DNA of 64,000 bases from Roseiarcus sp. (lineage in GTDB: Bacteria > Pseudomonadota > Alphaproteobacteria > Rhizobiales > Beijerinckiaceae): contig JBEKEI010000011.1 of NCBI GenBank assembly GCA_050013915.1, forward strand, positions 73 through 64,072, read 5' to 3'. Below the pieces are notes generated by a model. It was not told the DNA's origin. It did no database searches and was given only the letters and a program-made list of their open reading frames with translations. Position numbers and translations under genes: made by a program. The first letter of the stretch is position 1; every line of letters starts with the position of its first letter. This document shows positions 31,122 to 50,062 of the stretch, piece after piece.

Positions 31122-32662
31122 GAGCTGTTAGAAGTCGCTGTTGGGCGCCGGCAGCGCCTTTGCTGGCCGCATCTCCGTCCTCGCCCGCGGCGCCGCGGGC
31201 GTCGCCAGGTCTGCTGCCTTTGCCGCTGCCGTCGCGCTCGTCGCAGTCATTTGCACTCCTCGTCATTCGGCTCTGAAATGATCTCGGTCGCTCTCGTTTC
31301 TGCGCCGACTTCACCGGCGCTCACCCGAAGGATGAACCGCCACACCTGTCCATCGGGCACGTTTTGTCGCCTTGCAACCGCCCATCCGCTTCTCGACCGC
31401 CGTCAGTCCGAACAAAGCGTTCGGCGATGCGCCGACAAACGACATGAGACGCATTTTGATCTTTTGGAGCGCCCTGATCCATTGCTCGCAGGTCGAGCGG
31501 GATACTGTCATTGTGTCGCCGCGCTGAACGTTGGTTTACAAGCGATGGCGAAGACGTCATCCCAACTGGAGCATGTTCGGGATCTTTCGGATCGCAAGAG
31601 ATTCCCATGTGGTCGCCGGATTCCCGGACCGAGCGACGATGGAAAGGGCCATCGTCCTAGCGACAGGCCTGGGAAGGGGGGCGTATGGTCCGGCATTGCG
31701 CGACCGCGTGATCGATCCGGCAATGTCGGGACCAAACTTGCGCGCCGGCGTCCCGCACGGGCACCGGAAACGAACGACCTTCATCGCGGGACTGCAGTTG
31801 ACAGGCCTGACTGCCCTGATGGCGCTCGGCGGATCGATCAACACAATGACCATCCGCTACCGTAGCGCTCGGTTCGCGCCGACGGGCGCAGGCGCGCCGG
31901 AACCATCCGATGTCCTCCTCACTCAGTGAAAGGCGACCGAATGCTTGTCCGGCTTCTTCGCGATTGAACTCATCGTCGGTCATGTGCTGCTGTCCTTCTT
32001 GGGTGGTGAATTTTGACGCAGAGCTGAATGAGGTTCCGCGATGGAGCGCGCTAGAGCGTTGTGCTGATGGAGAGGAGGACCGCTCATCCCATGGTGCTCC
32101 TCACGCGGGCGACACCCGCCGCTCGCCCCCGACGCCGGATTGAGCCGCACAGCGCACCCGTCTCATCACACTCGCGAGGCGATCATCTCACGCGCTCCGT
32201 CCCCAATGACTTCTGCTCGCGATAGTGGGGCGTCGAGCGTCTGCCGATCGCCGGATCGACGTCAAACGCCGTGCAACGCCGAATTGCGTCGGGAATCTCC
32301 AACCACGCGAACAATTGCGCGGCAGCGGTCATCGTCCAAACTCTCTCTTCGAACCATTCTGGACTCATCCCGTCGGAGAGGACGACCCTGAAGGCACCCG
32401 CCAGCGATGCTCACTGGACTCCGGGCCGAGGGAGTCAGTCGGCTGCTGATCCTGGGCGCTTTCTCGATGGCGCATTCGTCGCCGACGGATTGCAGTCGCA
32501 TTCCGGATTCTCACGGCCGGATGGTCCCTCGGCCCGAGGGCTCGCCGGCAGAGATCGACGCGCGGGCTCGATCCGCAGCCGCCTCGCTTCGGCCTCCTCC
32601 CCGTCAGTCGCGCCGAAACGCCTCGGGGCGAGAGCGCCGCGCTCGCTCGACGCGCCAGCGCG

Positions 32663-33703
32663 TCATCGCCGCTCCGCTCCGACCGGCGGCGCCGGCTCGG
32701 CCGGCGAGGCGTCGTCGATCGCCAGCCAGCGCCCTACCGGCAGCAGGCGCAGGCCGAGGCGTTCGTCGGCCCAGCCCCACAGCCCCTTGGGCAGGAACAG
32801 TGCGAACAGCAGCGCGGCGCCGCCGAGGCCGACGAGATACCAGACGCCTGTCGCGCCGAACCAGGCCTCGATCGCGAAGAACAGCACGGCGCCGAGGATC
32901 GGGCCCTCGAACGTGCCGAGCCCGCCGACCAGCACCATGAAGATCATATAGGCGGTCCATTGCACGCTGAAATAGGTCTTGGGCTGGAAGCTGATGGTGG
33001 TCGCGAGCCAGAGCGCGCCAGCCAGCGCGACGCCGAACGCGGCGAGCACGAACAGGATGCGCTTGGTCCGCATCACGCGCACCCCGACCGAGGCGGCGGC
33101 GCCCTCGTTGTCGCGGATCGCCTGGATCGCCGCGCCGAGCGGCGAGCGCAAAAGCGCGAACAGGACGCCGATCAGGCTGGCCATCGCGCCGAGCGCCGTC
33201 CAATAGGTGAGCGCGTGGCGGAACTCGGCGGGATAGGCGTCGAGCGCGATCAGCGACGTGCCCGTCTCGCCGCGCACCAGCGTGTCGAGATTGACGAGCA
33301 GGTGGGCGAGCGCGGCGACCACCCACATCCCGATCGCAAATTCGCCCGCGCGCAGGCGCAACATGAAAGCCGAGATCGGCAGCGCGACCGCGGCGACGAG
33401 GACCGCGCCGAGCACGAGCGCGGGATAGACGCTGACCCCGGCGTCGGCGAGCCGCACCGCGGCGTAGGCGCCGAGACCGAAGAACGCCTGCTGGCCGATC
33501 GACACGAGGCCGCCATAGCCGGCGAGCGCGTTCCAGGTGACCGCGAGAATGACGTAGATGAACAGCGTGGTCAGCTTGTCGACGGCGTTCGCGTCGAGGA
33601 ACGCGGGGCCCGCCGCGAGGGCGAGCATCAGTGCGACGGCGAACGTGACCGAGCTGATCGACAGCGCGCTCCAGCGCACGACCCGGATCGCCGCGCCGGT
33701 CAT
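32663..33703 (-). CDS. branched-chain-amino-acid-type ABC permease (LivM-like)
   Basis: 346-aa polytopic ORF. WNALAGYGGLVSIGQQAFFGLGAY. Confidence 0.85.
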   Translation of the reverse strand: MTGAAIRVVRWSALSISSVTFAVALMLALAAGPAFLDANAVDKLTTLFIYVILAVTWNALAGYGGLVSIGQQAFFGLGAYAAVRLADAGVSVYPALVLGAVLVAAVALPISAFMLRLRAGEFAIGMWVVAALAHLLVNLDTLVRGETGTSLIALDAYPAEFRHALTYWTALGAMASLIGVLFALLRSPLGAAIQAIRDNEGAAASVGVRVMRTKRILFVLAAFGVALAGALWLATTISFQPKTYFSVQWTAYMIFMVLVGGLGTFEGPILGAVLFFAIEAWFGATGVWYLVGLGGAALLFALFLPKGLWGWADERLGLRLLPVGRWLAIDDASPAEPAPPVGAERR

Positions 33704-34590
33704 GTCGCCCGCCTCGACCGGACCAGAAACGAGCCGCCGTCCCAGAACAGCCGCCCGAACAGGATGACGAGGAATATGCCGTGGCCGGCGATGAAGAAGC
33801 CCTGCGGATTGATCTGCGCGCCGACGTTCTGGGCGACGCCGAGCACGACGCCGCCGATCAGCGTGCCCCAGAGCGAGCCGGCGCCGCCGATCACCGCCGC
33901 CTCGAAGGCGAAGATCAACTGGGTCGGACCCGCATAGGGATCGAAGGTCGCGCGCATCGCGAGCGCCGCGCCGGCGACCCCGACGGTCGCCGTCGCGATC
34001 GCCGCAGCGGTCGCGTTGACGCGCCGCGCGTTGACGCCGACCAGGCCGACCGTGTCGGGATCCTCCGAGGTCGCGCGGATCGCGCGGCCGAGCGCCGTGC
34101 GCGTCAGGAACAGCTGGAGGCCGCCGAGCAGCGCCACCGCCGCCGCCAAGGTGAGCGCCGACAATTGTCCGATCTGGATGTCGTCGGTCAGCGACCAGGA
34201 ATCATAGGAGAAATCGCCGATATAGGGGGCCAGCGAGCGGGTGTCGGCGCCGAAGCGTTCGAACAGCAGGTTGTCGATGACGATCGACAGGCCGAAGGTG
34301 CTGAGGATCGGCACCAGCACGCCCGCGCGCGCGCTCCGCTCGAGCACCGCCCGTTGAAGCGCCCAGCCGAACGCGGCCATCGCCGGCACGACGACGACGA
34401 GCCCGTAGAACGGCGAAACGCCGAACTGGTCGGCGAGCACGAACAGCGCGAAGGCCGCCAGGATCGCGAAGCTGCCATGGGCGATGTTGATGATGCCCAT
34501 CACGCCGTACATGAACGACAGCCCGCACGCGATCAGCGCATAATAGCCGCCGAGCAGCACGCCCTGGACGATCTGATTGACCCAGATCAT
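33700..34590 (-). CDS. branched-chain-amino-acid-type ABC permease (LivH-like)
   Basis: 296 aa. QGVLLGGYYALIACGLSFMYGVMGIINIAHGSF. Confidence 0.85.
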   Translation of the reverse strand: MIWVNQIVQGVLLGGYYALIACGLSFMYGVMGIINIAHGSFAILAAFALFVLADQFGVSPFYGLVVVVPAMAAFGWALQRAVLERSARAGVLVPILSTFGLSIVIDNLLFERFGADTRSLAPYIGDFSYDSWSLTDDIQIGQLSALTLAAAVALLGGLQLFLTRTALGRAIRATSEDPDTVGLVGVNARRVNATAAAIATATVGVAGAALAMRATFDPYAGPTQLIFAFEAAVIGGAGSLWGTLIGGVVLGVAQNVGAQINPQGFFIAGHGIFLVILFGRLFWDGGSFLVRSRRAT

Positions 34591-35312
34591 CGCGCGACGC
34601 CCGCTTTCGCCCGGTTCAGGCCGAAATAGGCCTGGGTCACCTCGTCGCGGGTCAGGTCCTCAGCTCTCCCCTCCAGCGCGATTCTCCCCTCCAGCATGCA
34701 GATCACCCGGTCCGCGACGCTGAGCGCGCGCGTCAGATCCTGCTCGACGAGAACGATCGTCGTCCCCGAAGTCAACAGCGACTGCAGCGAGGCGTAGACG
34801 CGGTCGACCGCGAGTGGAGACAGGCCGAGCGAGACCTCGTCGAGCATCAGCAGCTCGGGATTGGTCATCAATGCGCGGCCGATCGCGGTCGCCTGCTGTT
34901 CGCCGCCCGACAGCGTTCCCGCCCGCGCATTGCGGCGCGCCTGGAGATTGGGGAAGGCCTTCATCACCGCCTCGAAGGTCCAGGCGCCCGCGCGCCCCGC
35001 CGCCCGCGCGAGCAGCAGGTTCTCCTCGACGCTCATCTTCGCGAACAGGCGTCGCCCTTCGGGCACGAGCGCGACGCCGCGTGCGACCCGCTCGTGGGCG
35101 GGCGTCCGTGTGACGTCCACGCCTCCGAACATCACGCGTCCTGCGGTCGCCGGATGCGCGCCGGCGATTGCGCGCAGGAGCGTCGTCTTCCCGGCGCCGT
35201 TGGCGCCGACCAGCGCGAGCGTTTCGCCGCGCGCGACCTCGAAGCTGACGCCGCGCACCGCTTGCAGCAGGCCGTGGCGGACGTCGAGCGCCTCGACCGC
35301 GAGCAGGCTCAA
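34587..35312 (-). CDS. ABC ATP-binding protein (LivF-like)
   Basis: TTG 35312 overlaps the LivG-like stop. GANGAGKTT, LSGGEQQ, LLMLDEVSLGL. Confidence 0.85.
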   Translation of the reverse strand: MSLLAVEALDVRHGLLQAVRGVSFEVARGETLALVGANGAGKTTLLRAIAGAHPATAGRVMFGGVDVTRTPAHERVARGVALVPEGRRLFAKMSVEENLLLARAAGRAGAWTFEAVMKAFPNLQARRNARAGTLSGGEQQATAIGRALMTNPELLMLDEVSLGLSPLAVDRVYASLQSLLTSGTTIVLVEQDLTRALSVADRVICMLEGRIALEGRAEDLTRDEVTQAYFGLNRAKAGVAR

Positions 35313-36049
35313 TGGACGCTCCCGCCGAGATAGGCGGAGATCACCGCCTTGTCGGCCATCACCGCGCGCGGATCGCCGTCGGCGATGATGCGCCCGGCGT
35401 CCATGCAGATCAGCCGGTCGGCGACCTGCAGCAGCACATGGACGATGTGCTCGATCCAGACGATTGCGAGGCCGCGCGCGCGCAACTGGCGGATCGTGGC
35501 GACGAGTTCGCCGGCCTCGCCGTCGGTCAGGCCGCCGCCGATCTCGTCGAGCAGCAGCACGGACGGACCGGCCCCCAACGCGCGCGCGAGTTCGAGCCGC
35601 TTGCGGTCGAGCAGGCCGAGCGTCTCGGCGCGCCGATTGGCGACTGCGAGCATTCCGCACAGATCGATCGCCTCGATCGTGCGCACGTGCGCGGCGTCGC
35701 GATGCAGGCGCGCGCCATTGGTCGCGGCGACGAAGACGTTCTCGAACACGGTCATGCCGCCGAACGGCTGCGGGATCTGATGGGTGCGAACGATGCCGAG
35801 CCGGCAACGTTCCGCCGCCGGCATGGCGGTGACGTCGTCGCCGCGGAAGCGGATCGTTCCGGCGGTCGGCGCCAGAGCGCCGGCCAGGACCGCGAGCAGC
35901 GTGGTTTTGCCAGCCCCGTTCGGACCGACGATGCCGACGGCCTCGTCGGCGCGCAGAGAAAGGTCGATCCCGTCGAGGACGACGAGCGCGTTGAATCGCT
36001 TACGGACTCCGGTCGTCTCGAGGACGACGCCGTCGGCTTCCTTGGTCAC
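35309..36049 (-). CDS. ABC ATP-binding protein (LivG-like)
   Basis: 246 aa. GPNGAGKTT...LLLDEIGGGL... Confidence 0.85.
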   Translation of the reverse strand: MTKEADGVVLETTGVRKRFNALVVLDGIDLSLRADEAVGIVGPNGAGKTTLLAVLAGALAPTAGTIRFRGDDVTAMPAAERCRLGIVRTHQIPQPFGGMTVFENVFVAATNGARLHRDAAHVRTIEAIDLCGMLAVANRRAETLGLLDRKRLELARALGAGPSVLLLDEIGGGLTDGEAGELVATIRQLRARGLAIVWIEHIVHVLLQVADRLICMDAGRIIADGDPRAVMADKAVISAYLGGSVH

Positions 36050-36076
36050 GGCGTCGCCTTCATCGTTCGATCAGGC

Positions 36077-37396
36077 CTAGTTGTAGGGAACGAGCTTGGC
36101 CTCGATCGGCACGTTCGGATCGGTCGCATGCTCGGTCACAACGTAGTCGAGCTTGAACTTGGAGCCCGCCTTGGCCTTGACCCATTGCGCGCCGATGATC
36201 GGTCCGGGCGAAATGTTCGGGAATGGGCCCGACGTGAAGTCGACCTTGCCGGCCATTGTAACCGTGTTCAGCGAGCCGAGCGCCTTGGCGACCGCGGCCT
36301 TGTTCTTCGGGTCCGCGCTTCCCGCCAGCGCGGCGACGCCCGCGTCGATCAACGCCATGCTCGCGCCCAGTTGCTGCGTCCACTGCTTCCCCGAAGCCTT
36401 CTCGTAGCCATCGGCGAGTTCGGTCCCCGAAACGCCGGTCAGCGCGGACTTGTAGGGGAAAACCTTGTGCCAGTAACACGCGCTGGTCAGATTGTAGCCG
36501 AGATTGCCGAGCGCATCGACCTGGCTCGGGAAGAGACCGGTCTTGGCGATCTGCGCGATCTTGACCATCTTCGTATAGCCCTGTTGCGCCGCCTGGCGCC
36601 AGAACGCGGCGAAATCGGGCGGGATCGGGAAAGTGTTGAAGATTTCGCATTTCTCGCTCTTGAACTTGGCGATCTGCGCGGAATAGTCGGTCGTGCCGTC
36701 CTCATAGGGGCCGGGATCGATGATCGTGAAGCCGGCCTTGGCGAGGCCGGGCGCGAGGTTTTCACGGATGGCGTTGCCGTCGGCGTCGTTGGGATAGAGT
36801 ACACCGACCTTCTTGTTGGTCTCCAGGCTGTTCCACAGCGAGGTATAGGCCTTGAAGAACTCGCCCCCGCCGAACCCGAAGTGGTAGGACCATTTGAACG
36901 GCGAGGGCGCGCCCGGCTTGCCGCCGCGGCCGAAATACCAAGCCTCCCACGGCATCACCGTAGACAGGCAGGGCACTCCGGCCGCCTCGCAGGCGTCGGC
37001 GACCGGATTGATCGTCTCAGGTGTCGAGACGGGCAGCATGAGGTCGACGCCATCGCTGTTGATCAGCGTCTTGGCGAGCTGGCTCGCGCGCGAGGGGTCC
37101 GATTGCGTGTCCCGGTCGAGGATCTCGACCTGGTAGGTCTTGCCGCCGATCGCCAGGCCCTTTCCGAACGCCTTGCGCGCGAGTTCGAGCACATAGCCGT
37201 CGGTCTCGCCGAACCCGGCCAGCGCGCCCGTGCGCGGACTGATGAAGCCGATCCTGAGCACATTCTCGGCTCCCGCGGCGTAGCCGCCGCGCGCGCCGAG
37301 GCTGAGCGCGAGTCCGCCCGCGCCGGCGGCTGTCAGCAATTGTCGGCGCGACGGCCCCCTGCCCCGGCTCGCCGCTCGATCCAAACCATTCGTCAT
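36077..37396 (-). CDS. periplasmic substrate-binding protein (Leu/Ile/Val/amide-binding type) with Tat-like leader
   Basis: From ATG 37396. MTNGLDRAASRGRGPSRRQLLTAAGAGGLALSLG...LRIGFISPRTGALAGFGE. Confidence 0.8.
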   Translation of the reverse strand: MTNGLDRAASRGRGPSRRQLLTAAGAGGLALSLGARGGYAAGAENVLRIGFISPRTGALAGFGETDGYVLELARKAFGKGLAIGGKTYQVEILDRDTQSDPSRASQLAKTLINSDGVDLMLPVSTPETINPVADACEAAGVPCLSTVMPWEAWYFGRGGKPGAPSPFKWSYHFGFGGGEFFKAYTSLWNSLETNKKVGVLYPNDADGNAIRENLAPGLAKAGFTIIDPGPYEDGTTDYSAQIAKFKSEKCEIFNTFPIPPDFAAFWRQAAQQGYTKMVKIAQIAKTGLFPSQVDALGNLGYNLTSACYWHKVFPYKSALTGVSGTELADGYEKASGKQWTQQLGASMALIDAGVAALAGSADPKNKAAVAKALGSLNTVTMAGKVDFTSGPFPNISPGPIIGAQWVKAKAGSKFKLDYVVTEHATDPNVPIEAKLVPYN

Positions 37397-37613
37397 GTCT
37401 CGACCCTCCCTCTTCCACGTCATCGCGACGGCGCCGCGTTGATCGGGGCGCCGTCGCGTGATTTCGCCTGCCAACCAAATCGGGGCGCTCGTGCGAGATT
37501 GCCGACGAACCTGGAGCGCCGCAAGTCGCGTTCGCAGCCCTGCGCCGAACAATCGGCGTGGCGAGGCGCGAATATTGCGTCAAATTCCCGCGCTGGTTCG
37601 TGGATCGCGCCCG

Positions 37614-38468
37614 TCATCGGAGAACTCCGACGATCCAGCCGAGCCCGTCCAGCACGATGTCCGGCCTTTCGGCTGCGACGGCGCGTTCGAACGCCGCGTT
37701 GTCCGCCAGTCCGGTCGTCACCGCGATCGCCGCCGCGCCGGCCGTCCGCGCCATCCGCATTTCGAGCGCCGGATCGTCGCCAATCACGATCGTCTCGCCG
37801 GCGGCCGATCGTGGGACGCCCATCTGGCGCAGCGCGCAGGCGATCGCGACGCGCGACGGCTTGCCCAACACCCGCGCCTTCCTTCCGGTGAGGGCGCCGA
37901 TCATCCTGTTGATCGCGAAGCTGACGCCGATCGCACGACCGCCGCGCACCGCGTAGAATGGCACATTCGACGCGGTCGTCAGCGCTGCGCCCGCCCAGAC
38001 GTCGCGGCACGCGGCCTCGAGGTCGGCGAACGCGAACCCCTGGTGCCAGCCGGTGAACACCGCCTCCACGTTCGACGCCGTCTCGGACGGGCCGACGACG
38101 TCGAGGCCAGCCTCGCGCAGCGGCTCCTGGGCGCCGGTGGTCCCGAGCACGCGCACCCGCCGGACGCCGCGCGCCACGAACCAGTCGGCGGCGGAGGTCG
38201 CGGGCGTCATCATCTCGGAATCGGCGATTTCGAGGCCCGCCTGCCGGAGATTGGCGGCGTAAGTCCGCGGCGTCTTGGCGGTGCCGTTGGTGAAGACGCG
38301 CAAGGGGATCGCTCGCTTCCTCAGCAGCGCCAGCAGCTCGAGCGCGCCGGGCAGCGGCTCGAATCCGCGCCCGTCCGCGGCGCCGAGCACGAGCGTCCCG
38401 TCCATGTCGAAGATAGCGGCGCGCGCCCTGGCCACCCGCTCGGCGAACGCATCGAGGGCGCTGGTCAA
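37614..38468 (-). CDS. HAD-IIA (NagD-like) phosphatase
   Basis: TTG start overlaps the carboxyltransferase stop (TTGA). IFDMDGTL...FTNG...GDD motifs. Confidence 0.75.
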   Translation of the reverse strand: MTSALDAFAERVARARAAIFDMDGTLVLGAADGRGFEPLPGALELLALLRKRAIPLRVFTNGTAKTPRTYAANLRQAGLEIADSEMMTPATSAADWFVARGVRRVRVLGTTGAQEPLREAGLDVVGPSETASNVEAVFTGWHQGFAFADLEAACRDVWAGAALTTASNVPFYAVRGGRAIGVSFAINRMIGALTGRKARVLGKPSRVAIACALRQMGVPRSAAGETIVIGDDPALEMRMARTAGAAAIAVTTGLADNAAFERAVAAERPDIVLDGLGWIVGVLR

Positions 38469-39937
38469 GCGCCGGCTCGCGAATGCAGCGCGATCCGGAA
38501 GCCGGGCCGTTCGACGACGATATCGCGCGCCGCCGGGCGCTCGGCGAGCTTCCTCAGCAGCGCGAGCACCGGCGAAATCTCGGGCGTGTAGCCGCTCCGC
38601 CCGCTGCCCGCGGCGAGCATGGCGTCGACCTGCTCGCCCGGCATGACCGCGCGCAGCAGGAACTCCTCCTCGTCCATCGTCGCGCCGAAGCGGCGGCGCA
38701 GGTCCGCCAGCGCGGGAAAATCGTCCTCGCGCTCGAGTTCGCGCGCGCGCGGCCGATCGAGGATCGCGGCCTCGACCGCGGGATCGACGGGCCGGGTCGG
38801 TCTGCCGAACTTGCCCATGACGTAGCGCATCACCTGGTCGGAAACCTGTGCATAGCGGCGCGCGCCGACGACGTTGAACAGCGCCTGCGTGCAGACCATC
38901 TGCGGGAACGGCGTCACCATGATCGGCTCGCCGAGATCGCGTCTGACCTGGACCGTCTCGGCGATCACTTCGGGCAGCCGGCTCTCGAGTTTCAACTCGG
39001 CGAGCTGGCGGACCATCGTCGTCATCACGCCGCCGGCGATCTGATGCCCGAGAAAGCTGGCGTCGAAGCTCTGCGGCCGGCCCGGCGGCAATCCCTCCGC
39101 AGCCGCGAGCCGCCGCCAGTAGTCGCCGACCTTGCCGAGCATCGCGTCATCGATCGGAACCGCATGGCCGAGCGCGCGAAGATTGGCGACCATCCGCTCG
39201 GCTTCGGGCAGCGACGTGCCCTCGCCGGCCGGCCCGATCCCGACATGGACGGCGGACGCGCCTTCCTCGGCGCCGGCGAGACTCGACAGCGCGCCGTAGC
39301 CGATCGTGCAATGGACGTGCATTTCGAGCCGCTTGGCGCCGATCGTCGCCTTTACCGCGCGCGCGAGCGTGCGCGCGCGGTCGGGGCTCATCAGGCCCGA
39401 GGGATCCTTCAGGTAGAAGAGGTCGATGTCGGGACTGGCGGCGAGTCGCCGCGCATAGGCAGCATAGAACGCGTCGTCGTGGATGTCTGAGAGCGTGAAG
39501 GTGAGCGCGGCCATCACCTCGGCGTCGCCTTCCTCCTTGATGATCCGCGCCGCCGCCAGGACGGCCTCCACGTCGTGCATCGGTTCGAGCACGCTGAACC
39601 GCCTGACGCCGTTGACCTGCAGGCGTCGATAGACGAGTCGCATGAAGTCGGGATCGGCCTGCTGCCAGGCGATGAAGCGCAGTCCCGTGGTGATGAACTG
39701 CAGCGGCGTGCGCGGCATCGCCGCGCGCATGCGCCGGATTCGCTCCCAGGGGTTGTTGCGGAAATACCGTACGGCGACCGCCATATGGCTCGACGAGGTG
39801 AAATCGATCGCGCGAAAGCCGACCCGGTCAAGCGCGCCGGCGATCTCCAGCATATGATGGGTGCCGAGGCCGGTCGCGCCCCACAGGCTCTGGTTGCCGT
39901 CGCGCATCGAGACGTCGACGACGCCGATCTCAGCCAC
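38465..39937 (-). CDS. carboxyltransferase subunit (pyruvate-carboxyltransferase/HMGL-like TIM barrel), no fused biotin domain
   Basis: GTG 39937 overlaps the biotin carboxylase stop. VDVSMRDGNQSLW...LKDPSGLMSP...MHVHCTIGYG. Confidence 0.7.
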   Translation of the reverse strand: MAEIGVVDVSMRDGNQSLWGATGLGTHHMLEIAGALDRVGFRAIDFTSSSHMAVAVRYFRNNPWERIRRMRAAMPRTPLQFITTGLRFIAWQQADPDFMRLVYRRLQVNGVRRFSVLEPMHDVEAVLAAARIIKEEGDAEVMAALTFTLSDIHDDAFYAAYARRLAASPDIDLFYLKDPSGLMSPDRARTLARAVKATIGAKRLEMHVHCTIGYGALSSLAGAEEGASAVHVGIGPAGEGTSLPEAERMVANLRALGHAVPIDDAMLGKVGDYWRRLAAAEGLPPGRPQSFDASFLGHQIAGGVMTTMVRQLAELKLESRLPEVIAETVQVRRDLGEPIMVTPFPQMVCTQALFNVVGARRYAQVSDQVMRYVMGKFGRPTRPVDPAVEAAILDRPRARELEREDDFPALADLRRRFGATMDEEEFLLRAVMPGEQVDAMLAAGSGRSGYTPEISPVLALLRKLAERPAARDIVVERPGFRIALHSRAGA

Positions 39938-41267
39938 GGTCCATACCCTCGAAGAAGCCTGTGTCGACGCCGCCGGCGATGAAGCGCGGGTCCGCCGCGA
40001 TGCGTCGATGCAGACCGACCGTGCTGGCGACGCCGCCAATCTCGGTCGCGACGAGCGCCGCGCTCAGCCGGGCTACCGCTTCTTCGCGCGTCGCGCCCAG
40101 GACGATCAGCTTGCCAAGGAGCGAATCATAGTAGGGTGGAACATTCGAGCCGACGCCTATGTGGGTGTCCACCCGGATTCCAGGTCCCGCGGGCCATTGG
40201 GCGGCGACGACCCGCCCCGGCGATGGGCGAAAATCGTCGCGCCAGTCCTCGGCGTTGATGCGAACCTCGATCGCGTGGCCGCTGCAGGCGGCCAGATCCT
40301 GGGCGATCGAGAGCCGCTGGCCGTCCGCGATCAGCAATTGCTGTTCGATCAGGTCGAGCCCGGTGACCGCCTCGGTGACCGGATGTTCGACCTGGATTCG
40401 CGCGTTCATCTCGAGAAAGTAGAATTCATGCGATTCGGCGTCGACGAGGAATTCGACCGTGCCGGCGCCGCGATAGGCGAGATGGCGGGCGATGCGGACG
40501 GCGGCGTCGGCGATCGCGCGAAGTCTCGCCTCGGGAATGCCTGGCGCAGGCGCCTCCTCGACGAGCTTCTGGAAGCGCCGCTGTATCGAACAGTCGCGCG
40601 TTCCCAGCTGGATCGCCTCCCGGCCGTCGCCGAGCACCTGGACCTCGACGTGCCGGCCGCGACCGATATAGCGCTCGACATAGATGCGCGGATCGCCGAA
40701 CGCCGCGCGCGCCTCTGCCATGGCGAGATCGATCCGCGAATCGAGCTCGTCAGACCGGTCGACGCGTTTCATGCCGCGACCGCCGCCGCCGGAAACCGCC
40801 TTCAGCAGGAGCGGAAATCCGGTCCTCGCGGCCTGCGCGGCGGCGGCTTCCTTGGTCTCGGCCTCCCCGCCCGGGACGACCGGCAGGCCGGCCGCGACGG
40901 CGATCCGGCGCGCCATCAATTTGTCGCCCATAGCGTCGAGGCTCGACGGATCCGGGCCGACGAAGACGATCCCCGCCGCGATCGCGGCGCGCGCAAATCC
41001 GGCGTTTTCCGAGAGAAAGCCATAGCCGGGATGGATCGCGTCGGCGCGCGCGGCCCGCGCGGCGGCCACCGTGCGTTCGATCGACAGATAGCTCAGCGCC
41101 GGCGGCGCGGGGCCGACGATCGCGACCTCGTCGGCGATGAGCGCCGGAGCCGAGTCCCGATCGGCCTCGGATGCGCCGAGGATCGTCGTCATGCCGAGTC
41201 GGCGCGCGGTGCGGATGATGCGCTGCGCGATCTCGCCCCGGTTGGCGACGAACAGGCGGCGGATCAT
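39930..41267 (-). CDS. biotin carboxylase (AccC-like ATP-grasp)
   Basis: MIRRLFVANRGEIAQRIIRTARRLG...HPGYGFLSENA...GGGGRGM...EMNARIQVEHPVTE. Confidence 0.85.
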   Translation of the reverse strand: MIRRLFVANRGEIAQRIIRTARRLGMTTILGASEADRDSAPALIADEVAIVGPAPPALSYLSIERTVAAARAARADAIHPGYGFLSENAGFARAAIAAGIVFVGPDPSSLDAMGDKLMARRIAVAAGLPVVPGGEAETKEAAAAQAARTGFPLLLKAVSGGGGRGMKRVDRSDELDSRIDLAMAEARAAFGDPRIYVERYIGRGRHVEVQVLGDGREAIQLGTRDCSIQRRFQKLVEEAPAPGIPEARLRAIADAAVRIARHLAYRGAGTVEFLVDAESHEFYFLEMNARIQVEHPVTEAVTGLDLIEQQLLIADGQRLSIAQDLAACSGHAIEVRINAEDWRDDFRPSPGRVVAAQWPAGPGIRVDTHIGVGSNVPPYYDSLLGKLIVLGATREEAVARLSAALVATEIGGVASTVGLHRRIAADPRFIAGGVDTGFFEGMDRG

Positions 41268-41725
41268 GCCGCGTCCAGCCTGATCCAGATCAGAACCGCC
41301 TCGGCGTCGACCGAGCCGCCGTTCGGGGCGACGATTTCTTCGACCGCGCCCGAACAGCCGGCCGGGACCGAGGTCATCAGCTTCATGGTCTCGATGATGC
41401 CGACGACCGTGTCGGGCGCGACGCGGTCGCCGACCTCGACGAACGGCGGGGCGCCCGGTTGCGGCGCCCGGTAGAAGACGCCCGGCAGCGGCGGCCGGAT
41501 CGCCAGCGCGCCCGGGGGGCCGACCTCGGCGGCGCGGCCCTCGGGCGCGGGCGCGGCGACCGGGGCCGCCCCTTGCCACGAGACCTCCTGCGACCAGCCC
41601 TCGCCGGCTCGGCTGACCCGCAGCGTGAAGCGACCGGTCGTGATGTCGAGGCGGTCGTAGGCGGACTTGTCGAGGATCGTCACGATCTCGGCGACATCCT
41701 CGCTCGTGATCGGGATTTCCGTCAT
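41264..41725 (-). CDS. biotin carboxyl carrier protein (stand-alone)
   Basis: 153 aa. An AccB-like N-terminus, then PLPGVFYRAPQPGAPPFVEVGDRV...IIETMKLM (biotinyl-Lys motif). Confidence 0.75.
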   Translation of the reverse strand: MTEIPITSEDVAEIVTILDKSAYDRLDITTGRFTLRVSRAGEGWSQEVSWQGAAPVAAPAPEGRAAEVGPPGALAIRPPLPGVFYRAPQPGAPPFVEVGDRVAPDTVVGIIETMKLMTSVPAGCSGAVEEIVAPNGGSVDAEAVLIWIRLDAA

Positions 41726-42951
41726 GCCGCCGCCTTTCCCTTCGTCATCTCGCGGACGCCGTCGGCGAGCGCGCTCGCGAATTCCGCATCGTTGATGTGG
41801 CAGTCGAACTGACGAACCTCGACATGGGCCGGCATCGTGCGCGCGACATAGTCGGCGAGGCGCGGCGGCAGCGACGGCTCGTACAGATGGCCTTCGGGGC
41901 TGTCGTGATGGGAGAAGCCGCGCAGAGGAATGTAGAAGCGCACCGGGCCGGCCGCGTCGCGCACGATCCCGGCGACGTGATCGGCGAGCCGCTGGAGATC
42001 GGCCTCGTTGGTCCGCACCGCGGTGAGCGCCGCGTTGTGGATGTGAAACGGCCGTCCGCCGAACGGGTCGTCGCCCACCGCCATCGGCGAGGGCATGATG
42101 TAGAAGTCGGTGTTGCCGGGCGCGAAAATCGTCGGGATTCCGCGCGCGATGCCCGCGGTCGCGCGGTCGGGGCCGGCCGTGCAGATTCCGTTGTGGAGGT
42201 GGTCGTTGATCTCGACGAGCGACATGTCGACGATCGCGGCGACGTCGCGCTCGGCGGCGATCGAATCGAGGGTCTTGCCGCCGTTCCCGGTCGTGTGGAA
42301 CGCCATGACTTCGTAACCGTCCGCCTCGAGGCTCTCGCGCAGCGCGCGCATGCCGCGCTCGGTCGTCCCCAGAGTGCTGATCAGCACGAGCGGACGCCCG
42401 TCCGCGCGGGTCGGACGATACGCATGGGCCATTCCGGCCATGGCGGCGGCGCCGTTGCGGAAGACCTCGCGCGCGATGCTGTTGAGACCCGAGATGTCGC
42501 AGACCGCGTTGAGCATCGCAATGTCCTTCAGCCCGACGAACGGCGCGGTGAAGCCGGAGGCGAGCGTCGAGATCATCAGTTTCGGCAGGCCGTAGGGGAA
42601 CGCGCGCATGACCGTCGTCCCGAGCGTGGTTCCCATCGAGCCGCCGATCGAAAGTATGCCGGCGAGGCCGAGCCGCTCGTGGGCGTCGAGCGCGAGCTTG
42701 ATCGCGCCCTCGATCATCACCGCCTGGCACTTTCCCTCGTGTCCGAGCGCGCGCACCTCCTCGATCGTCCTGCCGGCCGCGCCGGCGATCTCCTCGGGCG
42801 ATATTTCCGCGCCGCCCAGAGTGCGCCGCACGCTGGCGTCGAGATGGACCACCTCGCAGTCGGCGGCTTCCAGCTGGTTGCGGAGGAAGCGACCCTCCTC
42901 TTCCTTGGTGTCCTGGGTGACAATCAGCAGAACCTTGGGTTTGCTTGCCAT
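41722..42951 (-). CDS. UPF0261 / Tm-1-like ATP-binding protein
   Basis: 409 aa from ATG 42951. MASKPKVLLIVTQDTKEEEGRFLRNQLE...GGSMGT...HTTGNGG. Its stop overlaps the BCCP start (ATGA). Confidence 0.7.
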   Translation of the reverse strand: MASKPKVLLIVTQDTKEEEGRFLRNQLEAADCEVVHLDASVRRTLGGAEISPEEIAGAAGRTIEEVRALGHEGKCQAVMIEGAIKLALDAHERLGLAGILSIGGSMGTTLGTTVMRAFPYGLPKLMISTLASGFTAPFVGLKDIAMLNAVCDISGLNSIAREVFRNGAAAMAGMAHAYRPTRADGRPLVLISTLGTTERGMRALRESLEADGYEVMAFHTTGNGGKTLDSIAAERDVAAIVDMSLVEINDHLHNGICTAGPDRATAGIARGIPTIFAPGNTDFYIMPSPMAVGDDPFGGRPFHIHNAALTAVRTNEADLQRLADHVAGIVRDAAGPVRFYIPLRGFSHHDSPEGHLYEPSLPPRLADYVARTMPAHVEVRQFDCHINDAEFASALADGVREMTKGKAAA

Positions 42952-42997
42952 GATGAGAGTCCGACGTTCGAGCCTGCGAGCCCGCCAAGTGGGCGGC

Positions 42998-43034
42998 ATC
43001 GGCGCCGACCCTAGCGGGAACGATCGGCGCCGAC
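42998..43034. promoter_or_regulatory. two copies of ATCGGCGCCGAC (palindromic core TCGGCGCCGA), 25 bp centre to centre
   Basis: Perfect 12-mers at 42998-43009 and 43023-43034, in the 144-bp gap between the AraC gene and the UPF0261 start. Candidate operator pair. Confidence 0.3.
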
Positions 43035-43095
43035 TTTCAGAGACGCGCAGCGGAGTTGAAAAATTCGGCAACGAGCGCGAACGCCGCCGCCGCAT

Positions 43096-44061
43096 TCAGC
43101 GACCATCCGATCCCCCGGAAGGGCGATCGGCGCCGTAGGTCCGGGGAGAAACGCCGTAGGCGTGATGGAAGCAGCGCGAGAAATAGCCGGAATCGTTGAA
43201 GCCGCAATCATAGGCGATCCGGGTGATCGAGGCGCGGCCGCGCTCGGCGCGCAATCGCTCGGCGGCGCGGCGCAGGCGGTTGTCGAGAATGAACGCGCTC
43301 GCTGTCGTCGACAGGCTCTCGAAGACCGACTGGATCGAACGCGGACTGACGCGCAGCGCGCGCGCGATCGACGAGGTGCGCAGGTCCGCATCCAACAGAT
43401 TGGCGCGCACATGCTCGAGGACCGCCCGACGCAGTTCGGCGGAGGGACCGGCGCCGGCGCACTCGAACGATTGCCCGATCGCGCGCAGCGCCAGATCCAG
43501 CCCGACGCGGCCGACGCACTCTCGCCAGTCGGCGTCGTCGGCGAGGCAGGCGATCTGGCTCCAGGCCGCGCGGATGAAGGCGATCAGGAGCCGCGAAGCG
43601 TTCGCGTCGATTCCCCGCCCCGCGGCCTGGTCGAGATCGAAAGCGGGCTGGCGCAGCGCGATGTCGGACACCGGCAATTCAAAGACGAAGAGTTCATAGG
43701 GTGTGACGAAATCGACGCCGTATCCGCGGTCGGGATCGCAGAGGGCGGCGCCGCCCGCGCTGATCGTCGTCTCGCGCCCCCCTTGCCGGTTCACTCCCGT
43801 TCCCGCGACCTGAAGATGGAGAAAGGCCGATCCGGTCCTTTTGGGCGGCGCGTTCGTCGCCCAGCGTCTCACCCTCGACCGCTGCGCCCGAATCTTGACC
43901 AGCCCGATCCGGCCGATTTTGACGCCGGCCAGCTTGCCGTCGAATTCGGGCCCGTCCGCATCGACCGCGCAGCCGGGGAAGGTATCGCCGACGATCTCGT
44001 TCCAATCGTCCAACTTCGCGGCGCGCCGTACGGGCGCGGCGCTGCTTCCGACGCCAAGCAA
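43096..44061 (-). CDS. AraC-family transcriptional regulator
   Basis: C-terminal SIARALRVSPRSIQSVFE...ITRIAYDCGFNDSGYFSRCFHHAYGVSPRTY. TTG 44061 is preceded by GGGAGG. The ORF is open to ATG 44235, but that extension has poor codon bias. Confidence 0.7.
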   Translation of the reverse strand: MLGVGSSAAPVRRAAKLDDWNEIVGDTFPGCAVDADGPEFDGKLAGVKIGRIGLVKIRAQRSRVRRWATNAPPKRTGSAFLHLQVAGTGVNRQGGRETTISAGGAALCDPDRGYGVDFVTPYELFVFELPVSDIALRQPAFDLDQAAGRGIDANASRLLIAFIRAAWSQIACLADDADWRECVGRVGLDLALRAIGQSFECAGAGPSAELRRAVLEHVRANLLDADLRTSSIARALRVSPRSIQSVFESLSTTASAFILDNRLRRAAERLRAERGRASITRIAYDCGFNDSGYFSRCFHHAYGVSPRTYGADRPSGGSDGR

Positions 44062-44750
44062 TCCTGCCTCCCGATCGCGGATCTCGTCACGCCGTTTCGG
44101 CGCTGCGCCCGCACCCAAAGACGCTAACACCGGGGAAATTTTGGCGCAACGCCGCGCGCGCCCGATGCAAAGCTGATCGGCCACAGCCGCCAATCCGCAT
44201 CGCGAGCTCCACCCCAATCCCCGCATGAACGGCATCGGGCCTGGGCGGCGGAGGCCTCGATCTTGTCATAGCCGTTGAGGCGGTGGACAACTAGGAAATC
44301 AGCCAGGCGGCGATGAAAACGCCGACGATCTCATACAGCCGAGCATGCCGAAATCGTCGTTCAACGATCCGATTGCGCCCCGGAACCCGCCGCCGTCGGT
44401 CAGGCCGGCGAATTCGTCGGACATGCCGATCGTGACCCGCTCAATGCCCTCGCCGTCCCGTTTCGCCTCGCGCGGGTGGGTGAAACTTCGACCAGTTTTT
44501 CATAGCTGTCGGGCAGCGGCAAGAGCCCCCTCTGGCGCGCGTCCGGGGCGCCGCGGCCGGCGAATGCGCGGCACGGCGGAAAGGCTTCCGGTGATCGCGA
44601 ATTTCCGCTACGCTGAGCGGTGGATCGCGGCTGGCCGGTCTCCGGAGAGCGATTTCAGCGCTCGGCCGCGCGGGCGGCGAAGGTCGCTCCGCGATCGGTT
44701 CGACGCCTGAACTCTGGAACTGTCGTTTCCTGATCGGCAAGCTGGATGGC

Positions 44751-46199: not shown

Positions 46200-46204
46200 G
46201 CGCG

Positions 46205-46450
46205 ATGGTCGATCCGGACGATCCCGGCGGCAACCAGCGAGGCGGCGAGATCGTCCGCTTTCCGCAGTCCCGGCTGCGCCCGGCCGGCCGCGGCCAGAGG
46301 TTCCGGGAACTCGGTACGAGCCGGCTCGCCGCGCGTCTCGGATATCCGGACCGGCAGGCGACCGGCCACTGGTGCAGCCGCTGTCGCGGCATCTGGTACG
46401 GTTACCTGCTCGAAGCGACCTGTCCCGTTTGCGGCAACCGGCGCGGCTGA
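46205..46450 (+). CDS. zinc-ribbon small protein (CxxC-N15-CxxC)
   Basis: 81 aa. GGAGA lies 10 nt upstream of the ATG, and GC3 bias is strong. ...HWCSRCRGIWYGYLLEATCPVCGN. No family recognised. Confidence 0.45.
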   Translation: MVDPDDPGGNQRGGEIVRFPQSRLRPAGRGQRFRELGTSRLAARLGYPDRQATGHWCSRCRGIWYGYLLEATCPVCGNRRG

Positions 46451-46494
46451 ACCCGTAGCGCCGCGAGCGCGATCGCGCGATCTCTGTATAAACG

Positions 46495-46514
46495 TGCTTT
46501 GCAATAGCAAAGCA
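46495..46514. promoter_or_regulatory. perfect palindrome TGCTTTGC-AATA-GCAAAGCA, candidate enhancer (UAS)
   Basis: Lies about 105 bp upstream of the -24 element. A second palindrome, CTGATATCAG (46576-46585), lies in between. Confidence 0.35.
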
Positions 46515-46609
46515 ACCTTGCTGCGGCGAGTCCCCCGATCCACGCCAAGAGACCCGTGAGCTTTCGTCTAATCGACTGATATCAGATGGTTTTCCCGCAC
46601 GATCGGCGT

Positions 46610-46625
46610 TGGCACGTGAAATGCT
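46610..46625 (+). promoter_or_regulatory. sigma-54 (-24/-12) promoter
   Basis: TGGCACgtgaaATGCT. The GG and GC doublets are 12 nt apart, as in TGGCAC-N5-TTGC. It lies 59 nt upstream of the small-subunit ATG and next to an enhancer-binding-protein gene. Confidence 0.55.
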
Positions 46626-46683
46626 CGGCAGGTATCGGCCTCGCGACGCCGAGGCCCCGCGAAGAGCGCACCGGGAGGAAACG

Positions 46684-47646: not shown

Positions 47647-47703
47647 CCATCGTCCATCCCAAGCGAACTCCCGCAGCAACTCTCCAAGGCGAGGACAATA
47701 TCC

Positions 47704-49302: not shown

Positions 49303-49362
49303 GCGCGGTTCGAGGCCGGGCGACGGCGGTCCGCGGAATGAGATAGGCTCGCGACCGGGAGC

Positions 49363-49707: not shown

Positions 49708-49754
49708 CGCCGTCGGGGCGGCGACGAACCGGCGTCGGGAGGCAGGAGTTCAGC

Positions 49755-49982: not shown

Positions 49983-50062
49983 CCCGGGGGCGGACGCCGC
50001 CATCGCCGCCGCAGGAGGCCCGAAGGCCCGCGTTTCCCCGGGCCGGATTCCGGGAGCAAGGA

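Follow-up and report, generated by a model that had tools for sequence, protein, structure and literature searches.

A marK-acvCDEF-type gene cluster predicted to degrade 4-hydroxyphenyl alkyl ketones, with its own regulator and importer, in a peat-bog Roseiarcus

The gene cluster described here very probably serves in the catabolism of 4-hydroxyphenyl alkyl ketones (4-hydroxyacetophenone, acetovanillone and their relatives), as judged by sequence comparison; in it, homologues of marK and acvCDEF are accompanied by a regulator and an importer of their own. It is situated in a 64,000-nucleotide stretch of contig JBEKEI010000011.1 of a Roseiarcus sp., referred to below as the window. Lignin- and moss-derived phenolic ketones are degraded via phosphorylation, carboxylation and dephosphorylation (bioRxiv 10.1101/2022.04.28.489975; PMC9618137; PMC12624787). 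The chemistry of the cluster was described between 2022 and 2025; less ordinary is its setting, i.e. the peat-bog host, the co-directional AraC gene and an importer apparently recruited to the marK-acv module.

Eleven co-directional open reading frames, all on the minus strand, span positions 32663-44061 (Table 1). ORF calls, Pfam and NCBIfam searches and direct reading of the junctions bore out the initial annotation in every detail as regards the genes, their domain identities and their overlaps. ATGA overlaps join the UPF0261 gene to that of the BCCP, and the latter to the biotin carboxylase (BC) gene; the junction of the BC and carboxyltransferase (CT) genes reads GTGGCTGA, and the CT and HAD genes overlap by TTGA. 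Among the transporter genes there are one ATTGA and two ATGA overlaps. Only two larger gaps were found in the cluster, one of 144 bp (42952-43095) between the AraC and UPF0261 genes and one of 217 bp that separates the binding-protein gene from that of the HAD protein.

Table 1. Features of the cluster, in the order of transcription, with positions in the window
Feature	Position	Strand	Basis
AraC-family regulator, TTG start	43096..44061	-	AraC_binding_2 + HTH_18 (Pfam, NCBIfam)
Terminator-like GC-rich hairpin, then T-run	43066..43089	-	Pattern match, within AraC-marK gap
marK homologue, UPF0261 (Tm-1-like) predicted kinase	41722..42951	-	Pfam UPF0261 N- and C-terminal domains
acvC/hpeC homologue, stand-alone BCCP	41264..41725	-	Pfam Biotin_lipoyl, ETMKLM biotinylation motif
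acvD homologue, biotin carboxylase	39930..41267	-	Pfam Biotin_carb_N, CPSase_L_D2, Biotin_carb_C
acvE homologue, carboxyltransferase, GTG start	38465..39937	-	HMGL-like TIM barrel + PYC_OADA
acvF/hpeD homologue, HAD-IIA (NagD-like) phosphatase, TTG start	37614..38468	-	Hydrolase_6 + Hydrolase_like, TIGR01460
Peripla_BP_6 Liv-type binding protein, candidate Tat-exported	36077..37396	-	Pfam; SRRQLL twin-arginine leader
LivG-like ABC ATPase	35309..36049	-	Pfam, NCBIfam
LivF-like ABC ATPase	34587..35312	-	Pfam, NCBIfam
LivH/UrtB-like ABC permease, BPD_transp_2	33700..34590	-	Pfam, NCBIfam
LivM-like ABC permease, BPD_transp_2, final cluster gene	32663..33703	-	ORF + translation

MarK is the acetovanillone/multi-aromatic kinase of Novosphingobium aromaticivorans, and its structure has been solved (PDB 9MPY; PMC12624787). 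The UPF0261 protein of the window matched that structure (E16K) over its full length (residues 1-405, E=1e-149), and its identity to MarK is 58-59%. The MarK residues D14, T15, K16, G195, T196, H219, F283, H304 and H348 are all kept, the last six being those named as acetovanillone contacts (PMC12624787). NF002674, the sole NCBIfam subfamily to which the window protein belongs, takes in both it and MarK (453 and 513 bits, respectively, against a cut-off of 335). The next-best solved match was Tm-1 (E=4e-47), which departs from MarK and the window protein at F283 and H348. The window protein is predicted to be an ATP-dependent kinase for the phenolic hydroxyl of 4-hydroxyphenyl ketones. It shares with Tm-1 and the other UPF0261 pairs the two-domain fold and the N-terminal ATP site, but the TIM-barrel (PEP-hydrolase-like) partner gene or domain of those pairs is absent.

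The four genes 3′ of the marK homologue are collinear with acvCDEF (Saro_1861-1858), alias hpeCBAD, and, from the similarities of their predicted products, encode a biotin-dependent carboxylase for phospho-hydroxyphenylethanones together with its phosphatase. For the CT and HAD proteins, the N. taihuense locus L078 stood in for AcvE and AcvF of N. aromaticivorans; the MarK, AcvC and AcvD proteins of these two species are 91, 86 and 92% identical. The BCCP is 53% identical to N. aromaticivorans AcvC (contig L082), and the BC is 69% identical to the partial AcvD from that contig and 67% identical to the N. taihuense protein, scoring below every AccC equivalog cut-off of NCBIfam. The CT, of 490 aa and devoid of a biotinyl domain, is 70% identical to its N. 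taihuense orthologue. The HAD-IIA protein, which carries a DMDGT motif, is 50% identical to its orthologue there; among solved structures it comes closest to NagD and p-nitrophenyl phosphatases. The functions proposed here are based on homology (50-70% identity) to an operon that has been validated genetically, in which deletion of the acvC and acvF homologues abolishes growth on acetovanillone (PMC12624787).

Mining of gene neighbourhoods for co-occurring UPF0261, BCCP, BC and CT genes, as proposed in the initial annotation, was carried out on 80 genomic loci encoding a homologue of the window's UPF0261 protein. In most of them the BCCP, BC, CT and HAD genes lie in the same order immediately 3′ of the homologue, and the arrangement is therefore not due to chance. 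The RDGNQSLW sequence (residues 12-19 of the CT), at first thought unusual, proved invariant in the CTs linked to MarK homologues (61 of 61) and was found as well in a Hpe-type cluster on a Rhodococcus plasmid, which has an HpeHI-type dikinase, and in other plasmid clusters. It is thus a mark of the family, rather than an oddity.

The closest known system is the marK-acvCDEF operon of N. aromaticivorans DSM12444 (Saro_1862-1858; Hall et al. 2025, PMC12624787). Both clusters have the same five genes in the identical order kinase-BCCP-BC-CT-HAD, and both lack a TIM-barrel partner and an AcvAB/HpeHI dikinase. They differ in host (a Roseiarcus-like hyphomicrobial as opposed to a sphingomonad) and in regulation, the window having a co-directional AraC gene directly 5′, whereas in N. 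aromaticivorans an IclR gene is divergently oriented and an AraC/MFS pair lies at a distance of 4 kb. Residue 16 is natively lysine in the window protein, in contrast to the nearly inactive E16 form of wild-type MarK in DSM12444. The five-gene Liv-type importer 3′ of the phosphatase gene has no counterpart in the N. aromaticivorans operon. The initial annotation took UPF0261 proteins to be paired normally with a PEP-hydrolase-like TIM protein rather than a carboxylase, and could match the cluster to no described biotin enzyme system; MarK, however, leads the operon published in 2025, and the system is that of AcvCDE/HpeCBA. The initial annotation had staked its claim of novelty on the same gene context not having been characterised already, and Saro_1862-1858 is just such a context.

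Similar systems were described as acvABCDEF/acvR in SYK-6 (Higuchi 2022, bioRxiv 10.1101/2022.04.28.489975) and as hpeHICBADEF in Rhodococcus rhodochrous GD02 (Dexter 2022, PMC9618137). These share with the window a three-subunit biotin-dependent carboxylase and a NagD-like HAD phosphatase for phosphorylated hydroxyphenylethanones and, in SYK-6, an adjoining AraC-type regulator. The kinase of the window is of the single-polypeptide MarK type (ADP-forming), whereas SYK-6 and GD02 have a two-subunit, phenylphosphate-synthase-like dikinase (AMP-forming), and neither hpeEF nor vceAB genes adjoin the window cluster. XccABC of Aromatoleum aromaticum EbN1 belongs with the acv/hpe systems among those nearest to the window cluster. 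The Rhodococcus plasmid cluster, used as a proxy for HpeCBAD of GD02, has the order PEP-utilizer/PPDK_N dikinase-BCCP-BC-CT-HAD-acyl-CoA synthetase; its BC, CT, BCCP and HAD proteins are 50, 44, 37 and 34% identical to those of the window, values that resemble those reported for SYK-6 versus GD02. The module also occurs on plasmids of bisphenol-A degraders, accompanied there by VceAB-like or HpeEF-like genes.

By analogy with these systems, the following pathway may be proposed. The binding protein and the LivHMGF-like ABC system would import a neutral phenolic ketone, and a substrate-responsive AraC-family protein would switch on transcription, as AcvR does. The MarK homologue, given its identity to MarK and its conserved ATP site and pocket, would phosphorylate the phenolic hydroxyl, converting ATP to ADP; phosphorylation of this group with ATP has been demonstrated for MarK (PMC12624787). 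The BC would then place CO2, from bicarbonate and with ATP, on the biotin of the free-standing BCCP, and the CT would transfer it to the acetyl methyl carbon of the 4-phospho-aryl ketone, with a phosphorylated aroyl-acetate as the product. HpeCBA carboxylates only the phosphorylated substrate, and HpeD removes phosphate from the carboxylated product (PMC9618137). The HAD-IIA phosphatase would likewise yield 4-hydroxybenzoyl-acetate or vanilloyl-acetate. The two 2022 reports differ on the phosphatase step, which one places ahead of carboxylation and the other behind it, and the order given here follows the kinetic evidence of PMC9618137. Finally, CoA-dependent cleavage by enzymes encoded outside the window would produce 4-hydroxybenzoate or vanillate and acetyl-CoA. 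No genes for VceA/BKACE, the VceB thioesterase, the HpeE acyl-CoA synthetase or the HpeF amidohydrolase, and no ring-cleavage genes, were found in the window, so the window alone does not encode a complete pathway. Import followed by ATP/biotin-dependent carboxylation of a small substrate, possibly with a phosphorylated intermediate to which the UPF0261 protein adds the phosphate and from which the HAD protein takes it, had been anticipated in the initial annotation, and it agrees with the pathway established experimentally for the homologous clusters.

Could the CT belong instead to a two-subunit-type pyruvate carboxylase or an oxaloacetate decarboxylase? Its homologues are automatically annotated as 'oxaloacetate decarboxylase alpha subunit', its top NCBIfam and PDB matches are PycB, OadA and transcarboxylase 5S, and it shares with these the HMGL-like TIM barrel, the PYC_OADA domain and the metal ligands (the Asp of RDxxQS, the Lys of xKDPxG and HxH). 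The lysine is carbamylated in pyruvate carboxylase. The scores, however, fall far below every curated cut-off (276.7 bits against 402 for PycB, 246.6 against 756.5 for OadA). Moreover, an invariant RDGNQS stands in the place of RDAHQS, both a fused biotinyl domain and the OadB/OadG membrane subunits are absent, and an aromatic kinase and a HAD phosphatase are obligate genomic partners of the CT. The characterised homologues are specific for aromatic compounds and inactive on unphosphorylated ketones (PMC9618137). This assignment is extremely improbable, and the substrate proposed for the window CT is an aryl ketone phosphate rather than a 2-oxo acid. That the same kinase-carboxylase-phosphatase chemistry serves another substrate (propiophenone-type compounds, syringyl monomers or other peat/Sphagnum phenolics with keto side chains) is improbable to a lesser degree, and would refine the main explanation rather than compete with it. 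Many aromatic ketones and aldehydes are substrates of MarK E16K, and growth of cells extends to guaiacylpropanone (PMC12624787); HpeCBA favours the non-methoxylated substrate approximately tenfold (PMC9618137); the I285 pocket position varies among homologues (I, V, M or L); and the host inhabits peat. Against this stand the retention of every acetovanillone-contact residue of 9MPY and the similarity of the CT to that of an operon genetically validated on acetovanillone.

The 4-hydroxyphenyl ketone module probably includes the importer; alternatively, the ABC transporter may be a mere neighbour that takes up amino acids, urea-like solutes or coniferyl-type alcohols, the operon being marK-acvCDEF alone; we consider the latter rather unlikely. 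Pfam and NCBIfam assign the transporter to the Liv/Urt family, yet the score of the binding protein falls well short of the LivJ/K and UrtA cut-offs. The 217 bp before its gene set it apart from the HAD gene, but a pattern search found no terminator-like site in that gap. The transcription unit of N. aromaticivorans consists of five genes without a transporter (PMC12624787), most marK loci lack one, and the context differs in 23 of the 41 informative loci of the transporter family, most loci of the family having SDR and ALDH genes in place of marK/acv. Nevertheless, linkage of the importer cassette to marK/acv recurs in Hyphomicrobiales, Acetobacteraceae and Burkholderiales with varying gene orders and orientations, which is difficult to account for unless selection has been at work; orthologues of the LivM-like permease are co-linear in loci L001-L003, L005 and L089-L167. 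Close relatives elsewhere usually adjoin genes for an ALDH and a coniferyl-alcohol dehydrogenase (NF009092, 362 bits). This is itself a lignin-monomer context, and one that suits a receptor for neutral monomers of the 4-hydroxyphenyl or guaiacyl kind, for which the binding protein is a candidate.

Co-directional AraC homologues (45-93% identity) are situated directly 5′ of marK in loci L001-L003, L005, L009 and L047, and others (34-38% identity) approximately 4 kb 5′ of it in many Novosphingobium loci, including N. aromaticivorans L082. AcvR of Sphingobium SYK-6 is an AraC-type activator beside the acv operon (bioRxiv 10.1101/2022.04.28.489975), and by analogy the AraC protein of the window is a candidate activator with a similar role. 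The hairpin in the AraC-marK gap suggests that the regulator gene may form its own transcription unit; terminator-like sites in the region were not above chance in number, so the hairpin is a pattern match only.

The window sequence was detected in peat and bog metagenomes. Short metatranscriptome contigs span marK, its junction with the BCCP gene, the BCCP/BC junction and the CT gene; they lend thin support and may reflect DNA carry-over. Sphagnum cell-wall phenolics include p-hydroxyacetophenone (PMC7010833), and this compound is a plausible natural substrate of the Roseiarcus-like host in its peat-bog habitat.

The eleven consecutive minus-strand genes at 32663-44061 were called as ORFs and assigned using Pfam and NCBIfam; they are listed in the accompanying table with the neighbouring features. 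As read from the sequence, a gap of 144 bp separates the AraC gene from the UPF0261 gene, the junctions of the five enzyme genes are ATGA, ATGA, GTGGCTGA and TTGA, and the transporter genes overlap by ATTGA, ATGA and ATGA. The gene calls, domains and junctions match exactly those described in the initial annotation.

Features of the catabolic cluster, its surroundings and the metatranscriptome matches
Feature	Position	Strand	Evidence or remarks
AraC-family regulator	first of eleven	-	AraC_binding_2 + HTH_18 (Pfam, NCBIfam)
UPF0261 protein, two-domain	second	-	Pfam, NCBIfam
BCCP, free-standing, ETMKLM	third	-	Pfam, NCBIfam
Biotin carboxylase (BC)	fourth	-	Pfam, NCBIfam
Carboxyltransferase (CT), 490 aa, HMGL-like/PYC_OADA, without biotinyl domain	fifth	-	RDGNQSLW at residues 12-19; Pfam, NCBIfam
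HAD-IIA (NagD-like) hydrolase	sixth	-	Pfam, NCBIfam
Peripla_BP_6 binding protein	seventh	-	SRRQLL twin-arginine leader; Pfam, NCBIfam
Two ABC ATPases and two BPD_transp_2 permeases	eighth to eleventh	-	Pfam, NCBIfam
Acyl-CoA dehydrogenase-enoyl-CoA hydratase fusion, 679 aa	29082-31121	-	ORF and domains
Interval 3' of last permease gene, 1.5 kb	31122-32662		G+C about 64%
Regulator, hydrogenase and maturation genes	44751-61450	+	hydrogenase island
Metatranscriptome match, marK	42069-42270		
Metatranscriptome match, marK/BCCP junction	41662-41850		
Metatranscriptome match, BCCP/BC junction	41083-41320		
Metatranscriptome match, CT gene	39496-39637		

A published pathway provides the context for these genes. 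Hall et al. (2025, PMC12624787) described MarK ('multiple aromatic kinase'), the UPF0261 protein Saro_1862 of Novosphingobium aromaticivorans, which uses ATP to phosphorylate acetovanillone and similar aromatics. The transcription unit Saro_1862-1858 begins with its gene; Saro_1861-1858 are homologous to acvCDEF in Sphingobium SYK-6 and to hpeCBAD in Rhodococcus rhodochrous GD02, and mutants that lack the acvC or the acvF homologue no longer grow on acetovanillone (PMC12624787). In the Acv and Hpe pathways, the phenolic hydroxyl is phosphorylated by AcvAB/HpeHI, the acetyl methyl group is carboxylated by the three-subunit biotin enzyme AcvCDE/HpeCBA, and the NagD-like HAD protein AcvF/HpeD performs a dephosphorylation, strongly favouring the carboxylated product (bioRxiv 10.1101/2022.04.28.489975; PMC9618137). 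The ATP/HCO3-dependent HpeCBA carboxylates only the phosphorylated substrate (PMC9618137), and the AraC-type gene acvR, just upstream in SYK-6, is needed for growth on acetovanillone (Higuchi et al., bioRxiv 10.1101/2022.04.28.489975). Higuchi et al. proposed that dephosphorylation precedes carboxylation (bioRxiv 10.1101/2022.04.28.489975); carboxylation followed by dephosphorylation is adopted here because of the kinetic evidence of Dexter et al. (PMC9618137). The CT and BC roles of HpeA and HpeB (XccA/XccC) are given in opposite ways in Table 1 of PMC9618137 and in bioRxiv 10.1101/2022.04.28.489975. HpeA as CT and HpeB as BC fits the reported subunit masses, and the order in the Rhodococcus plasmid cluster is BCCP-BC-CT.

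The initial annotation had proposed import, a phosphorylated intermediate and carboxylation, and that guess agrees with the MarK/Acv/Hpe pathway. Its claim of novelty cannot be sustained, as the same gene context, marK-acvCDEF, has already been characterized (Hall et al. 2025, PMC12624787). The cluster is a further member of the described kinase-carboxylase-phosphatase pathway, and not a new type of biotin enzyme system. What is of secondary interest is the joining of a transporter and a regulator to the module, the origin from a peat-bog lineage, and a CT signature that can be put to use.

The UPF0261 protein (about 405 aa) contains PF06792 and PF23189, both full length, and its gene lies between the AraC and BCCP genes. 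It matches MarK (the E16K structure, PDB 9MPY) over residues 1-405 with E=1e-149 and 58-59% identity; the match to Tm-1 is far weaker (E=4e-47). NF002674 is the only UPF0261 NCBIfam model to exceed its cut-off (335 bits), both for this protein (453) and for MarK (513). The ATP-site triad D14-T15-K16 is kept, and Lys16 is required for MarK activity (PMC12624787). Also kept are the acetovanillone contacts G195, T196, H219, F283, H304 and H348 named in PMC12624787, while I285 is either kept or replaced by M, according to the placement of a one-residue gap. K16, H219, F283, H304 and H348 are invariant in 80 of 80 genomic homologues; F283 and H348 are informative because neither is conserved in Tm-1. 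Judged from these sequence comparisons, the protein is a predicted MarK-type aromatic kinase. With Lys16 in all 80 homologues, the Glu16 of wild-type strain DSM12444, which is nearly inactive, is a defect peculiar to that strain rather than a trait of the family.

BCCP, BC and a PYC_OADA-type CT are encoded by three separate genes beside the homologues of the aromatic kinase and the HAD phosphatase. Identity to N. aromaticivorans is 53% for BCCP (AcvC) and 69% for BC (AcvD), the latter over the 304 residues present in a partial protein. The N. aromaticivorans contig is 8.2 kb long and ends inside acvD, and AcvE and AcvF were compared via N. taihuense, which can stand in for the remainder of the operon: its MarK, AcvC and AcvD are 91, 86 and 92% identical to those of N. 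aromaticivorans. Identities to the N. taihuense proteins are 67% (BC), 70% (CT) and 50% (HAD), and those to the Hpe-type Rhodococcus plasmid cluster are 50% (BC), 44% (CT) and 37% (BCCP). That cluster has the order PEP-utilizer protein, PPDK_N protein, BCCP, BC, CT, HAD and acyl-CoA synthetase, and is of the Hpe/Acv dikinase type. The CT keeps its metal ligands (the Lys of xKDPxG, and HxH). Its RDGNQSLW motif had been singled out as unusual; it is instead a hallmark of this CT family, since it occurs in 61 of 61 MarK-linked CTs and in the CT of the Rhodococcus dikinase-type cluster. It is found as well in the CTs of the Pseudomonas putida and Sphingomonas bisphenolicum plasmid clusters. The use of RDGNQSLW as a membership criterion was derived in this analysis and is unpublished. 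By homology, BCCP, BC and CT are predicted to form an AcvCDE/HpeCBA-type carboxylase.

The HAD gene lies directly 3' of the CT gene, with the TTGA overlap. Its product has Hydrolase_6 and Hydrolase_like domains and the motifs DMDGT, GKPS and GDD; it matches TIGR01460 (E=4e-23) with 82 bits, under the subfamily cut-off of 100, and its nearest solved structures are NagD and pNPPases. It is a predicted AcvF/HpeD-type phosphatase.

Other assignments were considered for these enzymes. UPF0261 proteins of the Tm-1 type would be paired with a PEP-hydrolase-like TIM-barrel protein. No such partner is fused to the UPF0261 protein or encoded beside its gene, and none turned up in a scan of approximately 45 ORFs, all but a few small ones in the window; this pairing was rejected. 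A literature search for Tm-1-like proteins tied to 4-hydroxyacetophenone returned nothing beyond the MarK paper. Initiation by a dikinase of the AcvAB/HpeHI type would call for PEP-utilizer and PPDK_N genes. A tblastn search of the 64-kb window with the HpeH/I-like proteins of the Rhodococcus plasmid cluster was negative for both kinase subunits, and this type was likewise rejected. The CT could be read as pyruvate carboxylase subunit B or oxaloacetate decarboxylase alpha, and the PDB search, which found no solved structure within this CT family, gave pyruvate carboxylase beta as the nearest (E=3e-56). That reading was rejected on account of scores well below the NCBIfam cut-offs for both the PycB domain model (276.7 bits, cut-off 402) and oadA (246.6 bits, cut-off 756.5), RDGNQS in place of RDAHQS, the lack of a Biotin_lipoyl domain, and the gene context.

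With the MarK-type assignment, the following sequence of events can be proposed. The ABC system would import the substrate and the AraC protein would mediate induction. By homology, the MarK-type kinase would phosphorylate the phenolic hydroxyl (ATP to ADP), BC, BCCP and CT would carboxylate the acetyl methyl group of the phospho-ketone, and the HAD protein would dephosphorylate the carboxylated product. CoA-dependent cleavage would follow, by enzymes encoded elsewhere in the genome. Queries from the plasmid clusters for VceA/BKACE, the VceB thioesterase, the acetoacetyl-CoA-synthetase-like HpeE and the amidohydrolase HpeF found none of them in the window.

It was apparent from the best 80 genomic loci that the gene order is widely maintained: in most, BCCP-BC-CT-HAD lie immediately 3' of the marK homologue with equal spacing. 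In most of the remaining loci, either the contig stops too soon or, as in Burkholderiales and related loci, the genes adjoin in a different order; roughly six full-length loci lack BCCP, BC, CT and HAD in their vicinity altogether. The marK-BCCP-BC-CT-HAD module is also found on plasmids of bisphenol-A degraders, and bisphenol-A degradation yields 4-hydroxyacetophenone. On the P. putida YC-AE1 plasmid, it is flanked by acetoacetate-CoA-ligase-like and amidohydrolase genes (HpeE/HpeF-like). In S. bisphenolicum pBAR1 and Sphingobium yanoikuyae, thioesterase and beta-keto-acid cleavage enzyme genes (VceB/VceA-like) precede the module and transposases adjoin. Chromosomal loci with such HpeEF- or VceAB-like next-step genes are a minority. 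IS5 or Tn3 elements adjoin the YC-AE1 and pBAR1 modules, in which the CT bears the annotation 'biotin carboxyl carrier protein'. MAGs of Geobacter and Desulfuromonadaceae (L020, L029, L037 and L071) contain marK with BCCP, BC and CT homologues at 55-60% identity, which suggests that anaerobes use the MarK-type route too.

In the closest relatives, marK is preceded by AraC homologues that share its direction and are 45-93% identical; in Novosphingobium, among them N. aromaticivorans, more distant homologues with an identical domain architecture (34-38% identity) are situated approximately 4 kb upstream. The AraC stop codon is followed by a terminator-like hairpin, which makes a separate transcription unit for the regulator probable. 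In a promoter and terminator scan, site counts were not above chance and this hairpin was the only positionally suggestive site; an Rfam scan of 28-46 kb detected no riboswitch or other RNA family.

The ABC cassette is found 3' of acvF in Roseiarcus, Bradyrhizobium and other alphaproteobacterial MAGs and in one Acetobacteraceae MAG, and beside marK/acv in other orders and orientations in several Burkholderiales (L022, L052 and L062; metagenome loci L115, L134-L136 and L138). In the reciprocal test, marK/acv was nearby in only 5 of 41 informative metagenome binding-protein loci (at least 71% identity), and in 8 of 80 under looser criteria. An SDR gene directly follows the second permease gene in 23 of the 41 informative loci, and an aldehyde dehydrogenase gene is nearby in 22. 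On Rhizobium plasmids, the cassette is flanked by an AraC gene and two aldehyde dehydrogenase genes, and the SDR matches the 'coniferyl-alcohol dehydrogenase' model NF009092 (362 bits, cut-off 242). Across the transporter-cassette loci L089-L167 and L168 (Rhizobium leguminosarum pRL9b4 609724-628908), genes for an SDR of the coniferyl-alcohol dehydrogenase type and for an aldehyde dehydrogenase mostly come after the cassette; the binding proteins are 71-90% identical and the regulators are AraC, GntR or LysR. This arrangement, seemingly uncharacterized, is a candidate module for the uptake and oxidation of coniferyl-type monomers. From gene context, we infer that this transporter family handles neutral phenolic monomers and was recruited to two different catabolic modules. 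The PDB search with the binding protein gave weak matches to unnamed Leu/Ile/Val-type binding proteins, so no ligand was inferred from structure.

It is possible rather than probable that the Liv-type cassette is a dedicated high-affinity importer for neutral phenolic monomers from lignin or Sphagnum, hydroxyphenyl ketones here and coniferyl-type alcohols or aldehydes in its commoner context, and that it was recruited into a self-contained regulator-kinase-carboxylase-phosphatase-importer module. With such a module, Roseiarcus-like bacteria of peat bogs could scavenge the p-hydroxyacetophenone released from sphagnum acid. The cassette would then be the first transporter to be assigned to compounds of the acetovanillone type, and the pathway would be tied to peat carbon turnover. 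The cited pathway papers name no transporter, and neither 'transporter' nor 'uptake' occurs in the text of Higuchi et al. (bioRxiv 10.1101/2022.04.28.489975). Among the phenolics that derive from sphagnum acid and are bound to Sphagnum walls, PMC7010833 lists p-hydroxyacetophenone, which is thus a plausible natural substrate. The closest genome is a Roseiarcus sp. MAG of the SPRUCE series (96% for MarK), and the window DNA is present in many peat and bog metagenomes. When 32000-44800 was searched against peat metatranscriptomes (runs X24-X26), a few contigs of 140-240 nt matched with 0-1 mismatches; these offer weak hints of in situ expression and co-transcription of the marK, BCCP, BC and CT region.

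Acetovanillone is a major product of oxidative lignin depolymerization and is usable by few bacteria, and the pathway matters for lignin valorization. The present locus adds a MarK-type operon with K16, predicted to be naturally active, from a new lineage and habitat, acidic peat. The candidate uptake system and regulator could be moved with the enzymes into production strains, and RDGNQSLW could correct a widespread mis-annotation of CTs ('oxaloacetate decarboxylase alpha', 'biotin carboxyl carrier protein').

Otherwise the window encodes housekeeping functions (PntAB, PurK, Lgt, QueG, MetK, TrmB), a sigma-54 activator and a NiFe hydrogenase/hyp cluster. Given these surroundings, the ketone module is an isolated insertion, and the genes for the route to 4-hydroxybenzoate or vanillate, and for ring cleavage after it, must lie in other parts of the genome. 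The interval directly 3' of the last permease gene has a lowered G+C content (about 64%); no ORF in it shows a coding-type GC3 bias, and Rfam gave no match. It may represent a degraded gene or else a long spacer without coding function. Beyond it, a single ORF joins an acyl-CoA dehydrogenase with all of its N, M and C domains to an enoyl-CoA hydratase (crotonase) domain, likewise complete. The fusion is uncommon, and no link to the ketone operon was found; it was rejected as an operon part, being a generic beta-oxidation-type protein 1.5 kb away with no coding signal between. Directly upstream of the AraC gene is the hydrogenase island, comprising a sigma-54 enhancer-binding regulator, the small and large NiFe hydrogenase subunits, a maturation protease, a NifU/Rieske protein and hypD-, hypE- and hypB-like genes.
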